62,280 bases of DNA from an uncultured Alphaproteobacteria bacterium (lineage in GTDB: Bacteria > Pseudomonadota > Alphaproteobacteria > RF32 > CAG-239). The notes under the pieces were generated by a model that was given only the letters and a program-made list of their open reading frames with translations, made no database searches and was not told the origin of the DNA. Made by a program: the position numbers and the translations under genes. This document shows, piece after piece, positions 26,404 to 37,346 of the stretch; the first letter of the stretch is position 1, and the number at the start of each line of letters is the position of its first letter. The DNA lies in NCBI GenBank assembly GCA_944390905.1, contig CALXRR010000001.1, positions 1-62,280 of the forward strand, in the 5' to 3' direction.

Positions 26404-26997
26404 GTGGCCGGAAAAGATATTGAAAAACTGGTAAAACTAGTGGCTAAACTCCCAGCGCTCGGAACGCGATCTTCTCGGAGAATCGTGTTGCAGCTACTGA
26501 AAAAAAGAGAAACGCTGTTTTTGCCTTTGATTGAGGCGATGCGCGAAGTGGCAGAAAATGTTAAAACTTGCGAAATCTGCGGCAATTTTGACACCGAATC
26601 ACCCTGCCCGATTTGTGCCTCAGAAACCCGCGATCCATCAACCATTTGCGTGGTGCAAGATGTGGCTGATTTGTGGGCAATGGAGCGCGTGGCAATGTTC
26701 AAAGGAAAATATCATGTCTTGGGTGGTATTTTGTCTGCTTTGGATGGCGTGTCTCCGGAAGACTTAAATATCGAAAAGCTGTTTACACGTATTGAGCGCG
26801 ACGGTATCAAAGAGGTGATTCTGGCGCTGCCGGCGACTATTGACGGACAAATTACTGCTAACTATTTGATTCAAAAGCTCAAAAATTTTAATATTAAAGT
26901 ATCTACTTTGGCGCAGGGGATTCCTGTCGGAGCTGAACTGGATTATATGGACGAAGGAACAATCCAACTCGCGCTTAATTCTCGAAAGGTGTTGTAA
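26404..26997 (+). CDS. recR: Recombination protein RecR
   Basis: LPALGTRSSRR helix-hairpin-helix, C4 zinc finger (CEICGN...CPIC), Toprim domain. Confidence 0.95.
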   Translation: MAGKDIEKLVKLVAKLPALGTRSSRRIVLQLLKKRETLFLPLIEAMREVAENVKTCEICGNFDTESPCPICASETRDPSTICVVQDVADLWAMERVAMFKGKYHVLGGILSALDGVSPEDLNIEKLFTRIERDGIKEVILALPATIDGQITANYLIQKLKNFNIKVSTLAQGIPVGAELDYMDEGTIQLALNSRKVL

Positions 26998-27770
26998 TGA
27001 AAAGTTATGATATCATATTGCCATTGGGGACTTATTGTGCGGCTTCTTACCATTTAAGGCACAATAATTTGCAAGTAGAGTCTTATCCTTTGGATTGGGT
27101 TATAATCGGAAATGTTAAAATCGGAGCTGAAATTATAGCTAACGATTTTAAAGACTTTTTTGTTAAAGAGCGGCTGGTGCGTAAAGATGGTGAAAGCGGT
27201 AATCACATTCCTTATGTGCAGAAGCCTGAAAACTATTCGTTCTTTCATTGCATAGATAAAGATTTGCCTTTTGATGAGGCCTGCGCTAAGGCTAAAGCGA
27301 TGTTTGACCGTAGAATTAAACGGCTGTATGAAAATGTCGGAAAAGCTAAAAATGTGCTGTTTTTATCTGCTCATAATCAACCGTTTAAAGAGCAAGATGC
27401 TATTGATGCTCTGGATATATTGGAAAAGAAATTCCCCGGAAAAAATATCGATCTAATCGTTGTTGATTGCAAAGATAATTATAAAGGTGTTGAAACTGTA
27501 CGTATTAATAATCATATTGATTTGATAAAAATGGAATTCCATACCGGAAAAGATATTTATTCTGATAAACAAGAGGAATTTACTCAAATCTTAAGTGATA
27601 GAAGATTGGGATCAGCTTGGCAAAGAATGGGGCGCAAGTGGAATAATGCTACATTCAAAATCAAACGATTTGTTGTAAACACATTATGCTGTCTTATCCC
27701 AAATAAAAAATGGCGCAAGTCTATTCGTCGTAAGTTTGATGTTTCGACGCAGATGTTTGAACGCAAATAG
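26997..27770 (+). CDS. DUF1796-like protein (putative papain-like cysteine peptidase family), copy 1, with basic CC-IP-K-R tail
   Basis: The N-terminus LPLGTYCAASYHLR...SYPLDWV matches my memory of the DUF1796 signature (.LG..C......L.....YPFDW). The ATG overlaps the recR stop (TAATG). Confidence 0.6.
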   Translation: MKSYDIILPLGTYCAASYHLRHNNLQVESYPLDWVIIGNVKIGAEIIANDFKDFFVKERLVRKDGESGNHIPYVQKPENYSFFHCIDKDLPFDEACAKAKAMFDRRIKRLYENVGKAKNVLFLSAHNQPFKEQDAIDALDILEKKFPGKNIDLIVVDCKDNYKGVETVRINNHIDLIKMEFHTGKDIYSDKQEEFTQILSDRRLGSAWQRMGRKWNNATFKIKRFVVNTLCCLIPNKKWRKSIRRKFDVSTQMFERK

Positions 27771-27778
27771 AGGTAAAA

Positions 27779-28555
27779 ATGAAAAAATATGACTTGTTTA
27801 TACCTTTAGGGTGTTTTTGCCTGCCATCGCATTCTTTACGAATGAGCAAACTGCAGTTTGTGTCTTATCCATTTGATTGGGTCGGATGTGATGATGTGAC
27901 CAAGTTTATTGATTATATGGATAATCATTTTCAAGGATTCTTCCAAAAAGAGAATCTTGAATTGGTCGGGGATGTTATCGGCAACCATATAAGCTATAAA
28001 GATACCAAAAACGGCTTGTTGTTTCCGCATTGTATGGATAAGGATTTGCCTTTTGATGAGGCTTATGACAAAGCCAGAGCTACTTTTGACCGAAGAATTG
28101 AGCGTTTGTACCAAAATATTGCTCAGGCGAAGAAAATTTTGTTTTTCAACGTATGCTACAAAACATATAAACAGCATGATTTGACTGACTTGCTGGATAG
28201 GCTGCGGAAGATGTTTCCAGACAAAGATATCAGCTTGTTAAGAGTGAATTTGTCGCCTGATTTTGGTGATAAGGTAGAGTATAACGAAGTTAGTCCGGAT
28301 ATTTTGGTGTATAATGTAAATTATGATATGGATAAAAATATTTATACCGACCGAGATACCGAGATGGCGCAGATTATGGCTGACTTTAGGATGCGCCCAA
28401 GTAAAAAGGCTGTTGAATATAAGTTAAATGAGGTTGGATTCGCCATTAAGCGTTTTTTGGTAAATTGCTTGTGCTGTTTGGTGCCGATAAAGAGAATCCG
28501 CCATAAAATAAGGAAGAAATTTAATATTTCAACCAAGTTCTTTGACAAAAACTAA
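27779..28555 (+). CDS. DUF1796-like protein, copy 2 (tandem paralog)
   Basis: Collinear with copy 1 (IPLGCFCLPSHSLR...SYPFDWV, CMDKDLPFDEAY.KA.A.FDRRI.RLY). AGAGG lies before the ATG, 8 nt after the copy 1 stop. Confidence 0.6.
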   Translation: MKKYDLFIPLGCFCLPSHSLRMSKLQFVSYPFDWVGCDDVTKFIDYMDNHFQGFFQKENLELVGDVIGNHISYKDTKNGLLFPHCMDKDLPFDEAYDKARATFDRRIERLYQNIAQAKKILFFNVCYKTYKQHDLTDLLDRLRKMFPDKDISLLRVNLSPDFGDKVEYNEVSPDILVYNVNYDMDKNIYTDRDTEMAQIMADFRMRPSKKAVEYKLNEVGFAIKRFLVNCLCCLVPIKRIRHKIRKKFNISTKFFDKN

Positions 28556-28789
28556 ATATTATATACAAAAGTGTAGACAATTTTTTGAAAATTCCTCTTT
28601 ACTTTATCTTAAATTTGTGGTATTAGTATAACTATACTATGGAGTTATCCATAGTTGTACCTGAGAAGGTACGGGGCTGTCGTAAGCCTCTCATATTGAG
28701 TCCGGTGTTGGATATAACATCGTCAAATTGTCTATACAAATTTTGTAGAGGCATGATTATATCCTCCTTTGATTGTGTGACGCGTCCAC

Positions 28790-28900
28790 GGTCGGGGAGC
28801 CGCAAGTATATGTTCAGAAACAGTGTCTGGCAATTGGGGACATAGGTTTTAAAAATTTGCGGAATCATCTGACTCAATATGATTTACGAACTCTCCGACC
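28790..28900 (+). promoter_or_regulatory. Structured leader: hand-folded three-way junction (P1 28790-99/28891-900; P2 28800-05/28857-62; P3 28863-68/28879-84)
   Basis: All pairings were read directly. P1 is 10 bp with one G-U. P2 and P3 abut each other and P1 without linker nucleotides. No known riboswitch consensus recognised. Confidence 0.35.
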
Positions 28901-28922
28901 ACCTTCTTACGGTGGTTTTTTT
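28898..28922 (+). terminator. Intrinsic terminator 28 nt upstream of the 28950 start codon (attenuator, or 3' end of an upstream sRNA)
   Basis: accacc-ttcttac-ggtggt followed by TTTTTT A TTTT. The 5' arm shares 3 nt with the 3' strand of P1. Confidence 0.6.
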
Positions 28923-28949
28923 ATTTTAGATAAATTTAGGAGATGTGTG

Positions 28950-31064
28950 ATGAGTACACAAGAAGAAAAAGAAATTATTAATAAATGGAAAGAAGAAATA
29001 GCCTATTATGAAGAGCGTAATAATCTTTCTGAGCGATGGGGACTGCTTTCAGATATGGTTCTTGATGCAGAAGATTATCCTGAAATTGCCAGAGAGTTGT
29101 CAACAATGTATTTAAACGCGATTGACAAGCTTGATGCCAAAGAGCGCAATCATATGTTTAAAGAAAATTTTTATAAAACAAGATCATTAGGCAGATTAGA
29201 TTATAGAATCTTTGATGATGTGTTGAAATTTGCTGATGAAAGAAAGATTCCGTTGCATATTAATCTTCAGGATCCTGTTCGATATGACTTCATACGAGAT
29301 AGCCTTTTTCAGGCGATGGAGAGAGGTATAGTATCACCAAAACTTTTGATGAAGAATGTATTCTATGATAATTTAGATGTAATGGCTTTTTGTGTAGCTA
29401 AAGACCCTTCTTTGGTAGAAGACTTTTTGAAAGCTGATAAGGCCGTTAAAGAAGATAAAGACCAATATAGAAGATATACATACGATTCTGAAGCTTTGTA
29501 TCAATTATCAACACAATTGGATAAGCTACCGGAAAAAATGACTCCGTGGTTGGTTGATGAAATTAGAAAATTTAATAGTGGGGATCTTGATGAATACATA
29601 CCTAAAACATTTTTTAATATTGTTCGTAACGATGTTAAATATATGACTGAATATCAAAAAGGTGGTTATAAGCTCTTAAACAATAAAGATGCAGAGTTTG
29701 TGGCTAAAATTTATGAAGATTTGCAAAACAGAGTTCCGGATACTTTGACTGAAAAAGATGTCAAGAAAAACAGACCGATAAGCTCTTTGACTAAAGAGGA
29801 ACAAGAATTATCTAAAGCCTGTAAAAAACTGTTACAAAGTTATGAAGGCAAAAAAGCTCTGAAAGTCAAATTGGCTAAACAATATCCAATGAGTGCTGAG
29901 GCTATTCGTGTGGGCAAAGATGATTATATCAGTATGTGCATCAATAATCTGGAAAATCCGGAAAAAGAAAATATCCGTTCAATTTTGAATCGATTGGAAG
30001 CAATAGGAGCCAAAACTTATGAGGACTTTGCCGATGCGGTTGATTTCGTACATAGAAGAGATATGTGCCGAAAGGTTTGTCGTGATTTTAAAAAGGCTCA
30101 ATATGAAAAGCATCAACAAAACCTTGGTGATGATAATTTTGTCTTTTTCCTTGATGATGATCAGTTGTCTTATGGTATGGCAGAAGCCGGTATTAAAGAT
30201 AAAAAAACGGCAGAAAAAGTCGTGGATATGTTTGTTAATTTAAACGACAGACCGGAAACTTATGGTTCTTCTTTAAATCGTTTTTATCCAAAAGATTTGA
30301 AAGATGCGGTTGACGTGGAAGAGTGGATGTATCCGATAATCAAGCATGCTGTATACAGCGAAGTTGTTAATCCTAGCCGCTTGGGCGGAGGCCAAGAGTT
30401 GTTTGCCGCTTGCAAGGCCTGGAAAATCAATCCCAGAATGCCTAAGGCTATTGCCGAACAAGTTGGTGAAATGTCTTTGGCTAAGCGTATGGTTGCCGGT
30501 GCCATTGTTGATGATATGGGAAGAGAGCAAGTTAGACTTCGGTACATAGATGTACCTCGTCTTCAACCTGATTATTGGCTGAGCGAAAATCCTTTATACT
30601 TTCCTAGAATGAACCACAAAAAAGAGCTGATTCCGGAGTTCTGGAAAGAAATGTCTAAGGCTCAGGAGATGTCTTTCGGTGAGGCGATGAAGACTTATAT
30701 CCCCGATACGCCGATTAACCGCAAACGTTTTGTAGCGGCGATGTTGGAAGAAATGGGCGTCGAAAACACCGAGGCTAAGTATCAGCAGACATACAAAAAC
30801 TTGGAAGAAAACGGTAAGTTTGAGGAATTTTTGGCTTCTGACTCAAAAGAACAGAGACGGGAAAGAGTAGAAAGAATCAAACAAAACAAAGCTAAAGTTC
30901 AAGAAAACTCAACCAAGAAGAAATCTATCCGAGAGGCTATTCGCGAACGCTTGGCTAAGAAAAACATTATTCCGGAAACAGGTGCTTTTGGCGAAGGCCA
31001 TAAGATTACCACCAACAAGGATATGTCTCAATTTAAGGCTTTTGTGGATGAAAAATCTCGCTAA
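28950..31064 (+). CDS. Orphan 704-aa hydrophilic protein, no recognisable domain (effector-like)
   Basis: ATG 28950 has AGGAG 7 nt upstream. The ORF-track start at 28773 would read through the terminator. The protein is Lys/Glu-rich with no signal peptide or TM segment. The DNA is visibly more AT-rich than its neighbours. Confidence 0.75.
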   Translation: MSTQEEKEIINKWKEEIAYYEERNNLSERWGLLSDMVLDAEDYPEIARELSTMYLNAIDKLDAKERNHMFKENFYKTRSLGRLDYRIFDDVLKFADERKIPLHINLQDPVRYDFIRDSLFQAMERGIVSPKLLMKNVFYDNLDVMAFCVAKDPSLVEDFLKADKAVKEDKDQYRRYTYDSEALYQLSTQLDKLPEKMTPWLVDEIRKFNSGDLDEYIPKTFFNIVRNDVKYMTEYQKGGYKLLNNKDAEFVAKIYEDLQNRVPDTLTEKDVKKNRPISSLTKEEQELSKACKKLLQSYEGKKALKVKLAKQYPMSAEAIRVGKDDYISMCINNLENPEKENIRSILNRLEAIGAKTYEDFADAVDFVHRRDMCRKVCRDFKKAQYEKHQQNLGDDNFVFFLDDDQLSYGMAEAGIKDKKTAEKVVDMFVNLNDRPETYGSSLNRFYPKDLKDAVDVEEWMYPIIKHAVYSEVVNPSRLGGGQELFAACKAWKINPRMPKAIAEQVGEMSLAKRMVAGAIVDDMGREQVRLRYIDVPRLQPDYWLSENPLYFPRMNHKKELIPEFWKEMSKAQEMSFGEAMKTYIPDTPINRKRFVAAMLEEMGVENTEAKYQQTYKNLEENGKFEEFLASDSKEQRRERVERIKQNKAKVQENSTKKKSIREAIRERLAKKNIIPETGAFGEGHKITTNKDMSQFKAFVDEKSR

Positions 31065-31075
31065 GCTTTAAGCCA

Positions 31076-31113
31076 AAAACAAAAAAACCGGAGCTAACAA
31101 CTCCGGTTTTTTT
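31076..31113. terminator. Bidirectional rho-independent terminator between the orphan gene and cvpA
   Basis: A-run, then ccggag-ctaacaa-ctccgg, then T-run. Confidence 0.85.
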
Positions 31114-31117
31114 GTGG

Positions 31118-31867
31118 TTACTCGATATTTTCTATCAAGCGGTCAAGGTTGGCGCGTTCGTTGTTGTTATAGCCGTCAAAATTCTTTTCAGGCTGCTTGG
31201 CCGCTTTAGGATGCGATTTTTTGACCGCTGGCTGTGCTAATTTTTCAAAAAGGATATCCGAATCAGTTTTGCCGGACTTCTTCTCTGTGGTCGTTTTTTG
31301 CGCCTTAGAATCGGTCGGCTGCTCGGCGGCGTCATCGTCTTTGAAAAACTCGGAGTTTTGAGTCTTGTCTTTTATCTTATCTAAGGTCGCCTCCGGTATT
31401 AGATTTTCTATCGGTTTAGCAAAGCTGCCGGCCAAATTAAAGTATTTGGAATCCTTAAATAATGGTGACTGCTTCTCAGGCGGGACTATCCAGCTTACCA
31501 AAATATAAAACAGTATTATCAGCAAAAAAGCGCGGACAATTCCAAAAAACAGCCCTAACATTCTATCAAGCCCGCTGAGCTTGCTGGTGCGGATTTTGCC
31601 AACAAGCTTGGCTGTCATTAATATCCAGCAGACCAAAAAAACTATCAATATAATTAATGAGGTTAATATGCCGGCAACCGTCCCGTTGGATACAAAATTC
31701 ATCATGAAGGGATTGAACACCGGAAGCAGATAAATTATTGCCACACAGCCTAAAACCCAGCCCACAATTGATAATACCTCTTTCATTAAGCCGCGGCTAA
31801 CCGCAATTAAGGCTGAAATGCCGATGACGATTAATATTGCAATGTCCAGATTGTTTAACTGGTGCAT
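31118..31867 (-). CDS. cvpA: CvpA-family membrane protein (colicin V production protein) with charged C-terminal extension
   Basis: Four hydrophobic segments and an N-terminus LDIAILIVIGISALIAVSRG typical of CvpA. Downstream of radA, as in many alphaproteobacteria. Confidence 0.8.
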   Translation of the reverse strand: MHQLNNLDIAILIVIGISALIAVSRGLMKEVLSIVGWVLGCVAIIYLLPVFNPFMMNFVSNGTVAGILTSLIILIVFLVCWILMTAKLVGKIRTSKLSGLDRMLGLFFGIVRAFLLIILFYILVSWIVPPEKQSPLFKDSKYFNLAGSFAKPIENLIPEATLDKIKDKTQNSEFFKDDDAAEQPTDSKAQKTTTEKKSGKTDSDILFEKLAQPAVKKSHPKAAKQPEKNFDGYNNNERANLDRLIENIE

Positions 31868-36749: not shown

Positions 36750-37346
36750 TTACTCCAGATATTTTTTATAACCTTCAACGGTAATCCACTCAATAGGAGA
36801 GCCGTGTTGATAATAACTGCCTGATTGTTCCAGTCTTTGATATTCTGATTTATCCCTCCAGCCTATAATCTTGGCCGGATTGCCGCCGACAATGGCGCAC
36901 TCAGGTACAGACTTGGTAACAACAGAACCGGCCGCAACTATGGCTCCATCATCAATACGTACCCCGCTTAAAATAATACAATCAGTTCCTAACCAAACAT
37001 TTTTGCCAATGCTTACCGCTTGTTTTATGCCGATATTATCAAAAGGAAGTCCTTGGGCTCCGTGGTAATGGTGGTTGGTGGTAAGAATAGTATTGTTGCG
37101 GCTGACGGCGGTGTTGTCGCCTATACTTACGCCACCTTCGGCAAAAATCTCTACACCTTTACCGATATAAACATTTTTGCCTAAATGCATTTGCTCCGGA
37201 CTATGCAACATGGCTCCGCGGCAGACTTTTTGCTCAGGGTATTGCGGAAGGTACAAAAACTCATGTTGGTATTTTTGACGGAGCTTTTTGCGGACAGATT
37301 TGAACGGTATTAAATTGATTAAAAATTTTTTGAGTTTAATGGGCAT
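36750..37346 (-). CDS. Hexapeptide-repeat (LbH) sugar O-acetyltransferase
   Basis: Repeating [LIV]G hexapeptides and ..GGNPAK.. near the C-terminus. The N-terminal tail is FLINLIPFKSVRKKLRQKY. Confidence 0.8.
   Translation of the reverse strand: MPIKLKKFLINLIPFKSVRKKLRQKYQHEFLYLPQYPEQKVCRGAMLHSPEQMHLGKNVYIGKGVEIFAEGGVSIGDNTAVSRNNTILTTNHHYHGAQGLPFDNIGIKQAVSIGKNVWLGTDCIILSGVRIDDGAIVAAGSVVTKSVPECAIVGGNPAKIIGWRDKSEYQRLEQSGSYYQHGSPIEWITVEGYKKYLE

Follow-up and report, generated by a model that had tools for sequence, protein, structure and literature searches.

An accessory slot between recR and cvpA in an uncultured alphaproteobacterium, with parts of apparently different ages and a structured leader RNA that is probably a terminator/antiterminator switch

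What occupies the interval between recR and cvpA in an uncultured Alphaproteobacteria bacterium (RF32; CAG-239), and did it arrive there in one piece? The window analysed here is a stretch of 62,280 nucleotides (nt) (GenBank assembly GCA_944390905.1, contig CALXRR010000001.1, positions 1 to 62,280 of the forward strand), in which recR is followed by two DUF1796 genes (copies a and b), a spacer and a gene for a protein of 704 amino acids (aa), named big704 here, before cvpA is reached. The initial annotation, made from the sequence, read this block as an AT-rich accessory insertion in which a putative papain-like peptidase pair is tied to a core recombination and replication operon and followed by a large orphan with the look of a host-targeted effector. 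The comparative data rather lead us to consider it probable that the interval is a three-layer accessory slot, not one insertion, and that the spacer of its youngest layer encodes a leader RNA, most likely a terminator/antiterminator switch (a riboswitch-like attenuator) controlling read-through into the 704-aa gene. Layers of very different ages can be stacked in what looks like one "island".

The evidence on the slot comes from its relatives. RecR was located in all 26 relatives searched, and recR, DUF1796 and the 704-aa protein were located in 14 other species of the genus, making 15 genomes with that of the window (G000). Seven of these (G002, G003, G005, G006, G009, G010 and G012) have an empty slot with recR and cvpA ~40 bp apart, while five (G001, G004, G007, G008 and G011) carry one DUF1796 gene right after recR, the orthologue of copy a at 53-58% identity, and a sixth (G013) has a DUF1796 gene right after recR at a contig end, recognised by Pfam match only. 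Both copies are present, at 81-82% identity, in the closest relative (G014, RecR 98% identical). The geometry is constant in the eight species, the recR stop and the DUF1796 start always overlapping or abutting (TAATG, TGATG, ATGA or TAAATG). In a tree of RecR, RadA and ABC, six of the seven empty-slot genomes form one clade, with G010 apart, and the DUF1796 tree agrees with the grouping of the species. Copy b, which is ~42% identical to copy a and sits on a long branch, occurs only in G000, G014 and near-identical metagenome strains; the strains L073 and L074 carry the same pair. The big704 homologues follow yet another pattern: close strains have them at the locus seen in the window, but they lie 284 kb from recR in G011, on other contigs in G005 and G012, and in the contexts typA/pfkB (G011 and protein P0013), ligA (P0023) and gyrA.

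Because copy a stands at the same recR-coupled position in eight of 15 species and its tree agrees with the species groupings, it appears to be old in the genus and vertically inherited, and only the cassette of leader RNA and 704-aa gene seems to be recent and mobile. The initial annotation had held that the same genes at this position in relatives would speak for an ancestral arrangement, and for copy a this is in part what synteny revealed. The block is accessory, as had been annotated; the idea of a single insertion was rejected by synteny, and its three parts differ in their distribution across the genus. We thus envisage that, early in the history of the genus, one DUF1796 gene became the last gene of the recR operon, where it would be translated by coupling to recR, and was lost in one clade; that the divergent tandem paralog, copy b, was gained later in the lineage of the window genome; and that the youngest layer would be a self-contained cassette made of a sigma-70 promoter, a 293-nt leader RNA with an intrinsic terminator, a ribosome-binding site (RBS) and the 704-aa gene.

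That the block is instead one recent, horizontally acquired AT-rich island, bringing a peptidase pair together with a host-targeted effector, we regard as improbable. Its composition would fit: the G+C content (GC) is 0.351 in copy a, 0.366 in copy b and 0.359 in the first 1.65 kb of the 704-aa gene (0.35-0.37 overall, vs 0.43-0.48 in the flanks, with 0.434 in dnaX-recR and 0.481 in cvpA-radA-ABC), which bears out the AT-richness first noticed. The seven empty slots, a VirB4-like gene in the genome and the basic residues at the ends of leader-led cargo proteins may also be read in this way. However, the divergence of copy a at its exact, coupled position tracks the species tree, the three parts have different distributions, no papain-like fold match was obtained, and neither a signal peptide nor a secretion domain nor a match to an effector family was found for the 704-aa protein. 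The landmarks of an integrase-mediated island are missing as well, as annotated: no integrase or recombinase domain was found among the three open reading frames (ORFs) of the slot, and no tRNA in the entire window.

The slot is a hot spot, because three genomes of the genus (G001, G007 and G008) hold a different accessory gene there, encoding a Cys-rich secreted protein of 273-328 aa (L060:2198-3019 for G001, L063:2120-3106 for G007). This Cys-rich protein resembles the first ORF on contig C27 of the window genome. Two further observations concern the contents of the slot in related strains. The 258-aa DUF1796 protein P0028 equals copy a over its first ~95 residues and copy b over the remainder, which suggests that recombination in a related strain merged the two tandem genes into one hybrid. 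The cassette of G014 shows decay, with leader positions 1-192 joined to the 704-aa gene at codon ~408 and no more than two fragments of the protein left (L053:2650-3400, equal to G014:C11:23824-24574).

What, then, does the spacer encode? The ~340 nt upstream of the big704 homologues are ~80% identical at the nucleotide level in all contexts, with proteins down to 39% identity, and pattern scan and alignments revealed the same element in front of proteins without detectable similarity to the 704-aa protein (the metagenome pattern scan gave two stretches only, one of them a false positive). RNAalifold predicted 85 pairs from 12 copies, 28 of them compensated, and a covariance model (R1) was built from these leader copies. 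Across 43 diverse copies 96.4% of cells are paired, vs 38-46% with partners slid, and 54 of the 85 pairs show changes on both sides; the observed values were reached by none of 500 shuffles. The spacer had been annotated as structured, and a covariation-supported RNA does lie within it. An alternative view of the region as coding was rejected: a 68-aa ORF (28639-28845) and a TTG-extended ORF of 763 aa are both contradicted by copies that differ by indels that are not multiples of three, by the gain or loss of whole hairpins and by covarying pairs, and we conclude on these three grounds that the spacer is not coding.

The leader is a new RNA family, widespread, supported by covariation and absent from Rfam. 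No family of Rfam 15 was found for it, with the window copy or with distant copies, at gathering or at permissive thresholds; within the window the signal recognition particle (SRP) RNA is the only one to reach an Rfam gathering score. The best match in the spacer, the integron-borne sRNA-Xcc1 (RF02221; 22.7 bits, gathering score 53, E 0.16, at 28790-28908), is not significant and probably reflects no more than the closing helix GGNCGGGG...CCCCGNCC. A covariance search of the host family found the leader in 127 of 151 sampled genomes, with 1-12 copies each and ~439 matches, and a BLAST search at the level of the order found it in 199 of 283 genomes; full-length copies also occur in a few other alphaproteobacterial families. 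The window genome has a second copy at C27:6073-6337, before a 1040-aa autotransporter (PF03797, E 1.8e-54; C27:6073-9495), and a degenerate 3' fragment at C16:9396-9928, before a 139-aa lipoprotein. New structured RNA classes of ~300 nt this widespread are rare; here, more than 80% of the sampled genomes of a gut alphaproteobacterial family are concerned, with hundreds of copies.

The anatomy of the leader (Table 1) comprises its own promoter, a folded RNA that ends in a terminator, and a gene start close by. A promoter ending no more than 12 nt upstream of the RNA start is present in 36 of the 43 copies, vs 0-6 of 43 in shifted control windows. The terminator hairpin itself occupies 28897-28917 and is followed by a T run, the first run ending at 28922; its stem is 97% paired with three compensated pairs, and its 5' arm and loop, which hardly vary, are complementary to the loop of the P2 hairpin (28662-28667). 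Read-through from the recR operon would also end here, because this is the first plus-strand terminator after recR. A co-oriented ORF starts -2 to 166 nt from the RNA end, mostly at 5-40 nt, in 47 of 48 copies, and most of the 47 copies other than that of the window show the same order of RNA end, 5-40 nt, RBS and start.

Two sets of helices can be drawn on this RNA. In the model fold, a 5' segment (28673-28707) is zipped to a 3' segment (28866-28895) by long-range helices with abundant compensation, the long-range pair AUAUUGAGUC/GACUCAAUAU being replaced for example by AUAUGAUG/CAUCAUAU and AUGUACUG/CAGUACAU in other copies. A second, local set reuses part of the same bases and consists of the P2 hairpin (GUACC/GGUAC), the P3 hairpin (GGGGCU/AGCCUC), a hairpin at 28864-28883, the GGUCGGGGAG/CUCUCCGACC helix and the terminator; it is 98-99% paired, again with compensations. 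The two sets are mutually exclusive and each is at least 96% paired with compensations. A choice between them (local P3 and hairpins, or the RNAalifold long-range helices) was dropped, and both folds are kept as alternatives because both helix sets are conserved. The GGUCGGGGAG/CUCUCCGACC helix, in which a compensatory change has put U-A in place of A-U in two distant copies, L168 and L172, competes with a well-supported hairpin, CCCCGA(Y)...(R)UCGGGG, and its 3' strand overlaps the 5' arm of the terminator.

A further complementarity would link the two ends of the leader. The P2 loop and the terminator loop (28904-28910) read UGAGAA and UUCUUAC in the window, UGAAAA and UUUUCAUAA in L142, UUUUUUA and UUAUAAAAA in L114, and UAAAUAAAAAA and UUAUUUAUUUAA in L104. 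They co-vary: the mean best complementary run is 4.31, vs 3.34 ± 0.14 when the loops are dealt to other sequences, and the observed mean was reached in 0 of 5000 permutations. Together with the adjacent GGU/ACC, the loop pairing can extend to a duplex that removes the terminator 5' arm.

Three features of an attenuator are thereby found together: (i), a covarying domain, (ii), a terminator between this domain and a co-oriented ORF and, (iii), exclusive pairings that involve the terminator. In the mechanism that we propose, one fold would let the terminator hairpin form, and transcription would stop at ~28922; in the other, the terminator would be blocked by the GGUCGGGGAG/CUCUCCGACC pairing and by pairing of the P2 loop and 3' arm with its 5' arm and loop, and the polymerase would read into the cargo gene. 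Anatomy, conservation, covariation, alternative pairings, the leader's promoter and its distribution are seen in the data; the switching, its direction and the existence of a signal that would set the choice of fold are what we infer here. The switch helices can already be named, which makes the question directly testable.

Could the 293-nt RNA rather be a stand-alone, trans-acting small RNA (sRNA) with a constitutive terminator, the downstream gene being expressed by leakage or silent and the adjacency a by-product of the cassette? Its own promoter, its strong terminator and its several copies per genome would suit such a molecule, and the terminator hairpin seems to be integrated into the fold by loop-loop pairing, as in many small RNAs. 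We nevertheless find this unlikely: a co-oriented ORF with an RBS lies close by in all but one of the 48 copies, usually leaving no room for a second promoter, and the conserved exclusive helices take in the terminator 5' arm. Core versions of ~150 nt also speak for a design in cis. These cores (L164-L170) are found in other, GC-richer Alphaproteobacteria before small lipoprotein genes, have no terminator and carry a conserved ACUCCCC (AACUCCCC) complementary to the GGGGAG RBS of the cargo; this opposition of an anti-Shine-Dalgarno (anti-SD) sequence and the cargo RBS argues for cis regulation and suggests that the cores may use a translational expression platform.

The genes led by the RNA are diverse. 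They include autotransporters and lipoproteins; GT2, RgpF and Caps_synth glycosyltransferases and a cytidylyltransferase; secreted nucleases of the SNase and RNase T types; PD-(D/E)XK nucleases, a DEAD/ResIII helicase and a WYL protein; a CorA-associated DHH hydrolase (a PADLOC family); and several families of large hydrophilic orphans. If the leader is a riboswitch or a protein-controlled attenuator, it would define the principal regulon of accessory genes with surface, secreted and defence-type products across a large group of uncultured gut bacteria. It is conceivable, and we offer this tentatively, that it represents a new orphan riboswitch class of Alphaproteobacteria, with a long form of ~290 nt present at 1-12 copies per genome in gut lineages and an anti-SD core of ~150 nt elsewhere. 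Such a class would sense a cellular or environmental signal and jointly regulate accessory genes for envelope proteins, secreted nucleases, defence-type functions and orphans; the leader, together with the conserved 3' gene end, would also provide recombination anchors for swaps of cargo alleles.

Comparison with known systems is instructive. Like the lysine riboswitch (RF00168), cobalamin and T-box leaders, the RNA forms a 200-300-nt 5' leader that has multi-helix junctions, covaries strongly and is present in several copies per genome, and like large junction riboswitches it has a terminator just before the RBS and exclusive pairings that take in the terminator 5' arm. It differs from the lysine, cobalamin and T-box classes in lacking an Rfam model match, in its heterogeneous accessory cargo (vs one pathway) and in the complementarity of a hairpin loop to the terminator loop. 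The GEMM-I/II riboswitches for cyclic di-GMP (c-di-GMP) control adhesin, pilus, exopolysaccharide and nuclease genes and are present in many copies per genome. The leader is likewise multicopy and precedes adhesin-like autotransporters, glycosyltransferases, secreted nucleases and many hypothetical genes, but it has no match to GEMM models and its distribution does not follow that of GGDEF. In genus g11, the RNA is present in 10 of 12 genomes (up to nine copies) and GGDEF in one of 12, while genera g2, g9, g33 and g35 have GGDEF and no leader RNA. c-di-GMP was set aside as an unlikely signal on account of this phyletic mismatch. With integron cassettes and other conserved-flank exchange systems the locus has in common that a conserved non-coding element travels with variable single genes and that strains differ inside the cargo while leader and 3' end are kept; unlike these, it has no integrase or attC, and its conserved element, located 5' of the gene, has a promoter and would be transcribed into a structured RNA.

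RfaH/ops, UpxY, LoaP and EAR serve accessory, AT-rich regulons for surface structures. Like the elements of ops/JUMPStart-RfaH, UpxY, LoaP, EAR and put, the leader stands before horizontally acquired or surface genes and has a terminator to overcome. It might therefore be asked whether it is a processive antitermination RNA of the put/EAR type, which would bind the polymerase and override its own and downstream (Rho-dependent) terminators for AT-rich foreign cargo. The accessory, AT-rich nature of the cargo, with its many surface structures, and the terminator immediately after the RNA would agree with this. However, a partner of the RfaH/LoaP/UpxY type was rejected: of the 140 genomes in which the NusG N-terminal domain was matched, 139 have it once and one has it twice, in RNA-bearing and RNA-free genera alike, and the lack of a second NusG-family gene excludes the RfaH/LoaP/UpxY variant, not put/EAR. 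Cargo consists mostly of single genes and not of long operons; the folded RNA of 293 nt contrasts with DNA signals of 8-12 nt or two-hairpin RNAs of 70-120 nt, being 2-4 times larger than put or EAR; and it has switch-like alternative pairings that those do not need. Antitermination of this kind is consequently quite unlikely, and we retain the terminator/antiterminator switch as the preferred reading of the leader.

The two older layers raise the question of what DUF1796 does beside recR. Both proteins belong to the family, as annotated (45.4 and 54.9 bits vs a gathering score of 23), and Pfam labels it a putative papain-like cysteine peptidase (PF08795). Among 15 sequences, G11, C14, S17, R21, D33, W34, H84 and R105-R109 are invariant, and both copies possess the N-terminal G-x-x-C ... 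(F/L)DW block and the downstream His. The invariant C14 and H84 are necessary for a peptidase of this type, not sufficient, and the fold part of the claim was not confirmed: although both proteins score above the curated threshold, no clan-CA structure is among the PDB matches listed for the predicted fold. A Foldseek search of the AlphaFold2 (AF2) model (predicted local distance difference test (pLDDT) 88.2, predicted TM-score (pTM) 0.81) against the PDB gave a best E of 0.01 (MnmE G domain, TM 0.28), which is not significant, with no peptidase among the 50 matches listed, and a DUF1796 profile search against PDB sequences gave nothing. There is no functional study of DUF1796 in the literature searched. 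The proteins here end in a tail that is basic and amphipathic, CC-L-[IV]-P-x-K-[KR]-x-R-[KH]-x-I-R-[RK]-K-F, shared with glycan-pathway transferases: the LbH transferase encoded at 36750-37346 has it at its N-terminus. In related genomes, family members encoded away from recR have GT2 (8), hexapeptide transferase (6), DegT, GT92 and GtrA genes as neighbours.

From the paralog neighbours and the tail in common with the LbH transferase, we infer that DUF1796 is a membrane-proximal Cys/His enzyme of surface-glycan modification that would not act on protein or DNA. The family name implies a peptidase; the gene context here points to glycan chemistry. Given such a role, the coupling to recR would serve expression rather than function. 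A functional link of the pair to RecR in DNA repair or recombination is very doubtful indeed: the coupled starts, conserved in eight species, are what it would explain, but seven species of the genus have no gene there, four of them (G003, G005, G009 and G010) have no DUF1796 anywhere in the genome, other copies of DUF1796 lie in glycan-synthesis clusters, and the tail motif recurs in the LbH transferase.

Several points weigh against the combined picture of a layered slot and a switching leader. The cargo has no single common function, which is unusual for a metabolite riboswitch, and the two specific candidates, a NusG paralog and c-di-GMP, failed. Several of the alternative helices are drawn on nearly invariant sequence and are compatible with the data, not proven by them, and the pair counts come from an alignment that was fitted to the model structure and so favours it. 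The genus tree has an uncertain root, and an early gain followed by loss is not fully separable from a later gain. Finally, the glycan role rests on paralog neighbours, which the recR-linked copy does not have.

The product of the youngest layer has little to identify it. As annotated, the 704-aa protein is rich in Lys (10.9%) and Glu (9.8%) and has no recognised domain: no significant match was found in Pfam, NCBIfam, PADLOC or PHROG, the last two giving no match for any of the three proteins of the block. No hydrophobic segment was detected (the maximum Kyte-Doolittle value over 19 residues is 1.07), and neither a signal peptide nor a transmembrane segment. Its 23 homologues are all metagenomic, none of them named or with a domain, and a profile search of 1.8 billion representatives retrieved 79 proteins. 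In the alignment of homologues the N-terminal third is variable, residues ~330-704 contain many invariant positions and the C-terminus is conserved; a module at residues ~400-650 is conserved and is also found inside proteins of 1,500-1,800 aa (P0055, P0058, P0061 and P0064), two of which have a weak match to a GNAT acetyltransferase near the C-terminus. The AF2 model is all-helical (pLDDT 78.7) and has no significant fold match in the PDB (best E 0.16). Regarding possible export, the window genome encodes a VirB4-like ORF (C2:34414-34944), TolC-type proteins and three autotransporters, TssC was not found in it, and the basic C-terminus of the protein is at most suggestive of a secretion signal. 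These observations speak neither for nor against an effector role.

The gene varies strongly within its conserved surroundings. Compared with a close strain whose flanks and leader are 97-100% identical, the gene is at 55-83% nucleotide identity from 28954 to 30600 and at 93-95% over its last 460 nt, codons 1-550 being hypervariable between near-identical strains. This pattern points either to replacement of alleles through recombination, which would have its anchors in the leader and the 3' end, or to diversifying selection of some strength. A diversity-generating retroelement was rejected as the cause: bAvd and a reverse transcriptase (RT) adjoin one homologue, but the divergence, at 17-45%, extends over 1.6 kb, and an RT is absent from most loci.

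The features of the locus are collected in Table 1. At the junction of recR and copy a, stop and start overlap in the sequence TAATG, and eight bases separate the copy a stop from the copy b ATG, just as initially described, and the annotated bidirectional terminator at the end of the block is also there, 100% conserved in strain L073. The longest ORF reading of big704 would start at TTG 28773 and give 763 aa; it was rejected, as it runs through the terminator and all homologues begin with MSTQE at ATG 28950.

Table 1. Coordinates of the features of the recR-cvpA interval (positions in the window)
Feature	Position	Strand	Remarks
recR	26404-26997	+	Pfam RecR_HhH, RecR_ZnF, Toprim_4, RecR_C; closes the conserved ffs-dnaX-ybaB-recR unit
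DUF1796 copy a, 257 aa	26997-27770	+	PF08795, E 9.7e-12
DUF1796 copy b, 258 aa	27779-28555	+	PF08795, E 1.2e-14
Spacer, 394 bp	28556-28949		between copy b and the 704-aa ORF
Leader promoter	28598-28626	+	-35 TTTACT (28598-28603), 17-nt spacer, extended -10 TGgTATTAG (28618-28626); conserved in alignments
Structured leader RNA, ~293 nt	28630-28922	+	5' variable hairpin, P2 hairpin, long-range helices closing a multi-helix core, 3' terminator hairpin
GGUCGGGGAG	28790-28799	+	pairs with CUCUCCGACC (28891-28900); alternative 5' partner CCUUUGAU (~28765-28772)
Intrinsic terminator	28897-28927	+	GACCACC-TTCTTAC-GGTGGTT and T run; 3' end of the RNA
Shine-Dalgarno AGGAG	28938-28942	+	~15 nt past the T run, 8 nt upstream of ATG 28950
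704-aa ORF (big704)	28950-31064	+	ATG at 28950
Bidirectional terminator	31079-31115	both	17-bp stem, T run on each strand; common to the 704-aa gene and cvpA
cvpA	31118-31867	-	PF02674, E 5.7e-26; conserved right border of the slot

Some smaller observations concern the surroundings of the leader. In locus L071 (5637-7573) and in L084 (oriented, 54-1370), both of them metagenome or MAG contigs, a bAvd and reverse-transcriptase pair lies directly upstream of a leader-led gene next to ligA, and L071 contains another leader copy at 1069-1328. A short A/T palindrome, TTTTGTCAAAA (ATTTTTTGAAAAT in the window, 28580-28596), immediately precedes the -35 box and is found ~47 nt upstream of the RNA start in L077, L079, L081, L083 and L085, the leader sub-family closest to the window copy; a role as a transcription-factor site or as an UP element is possible.

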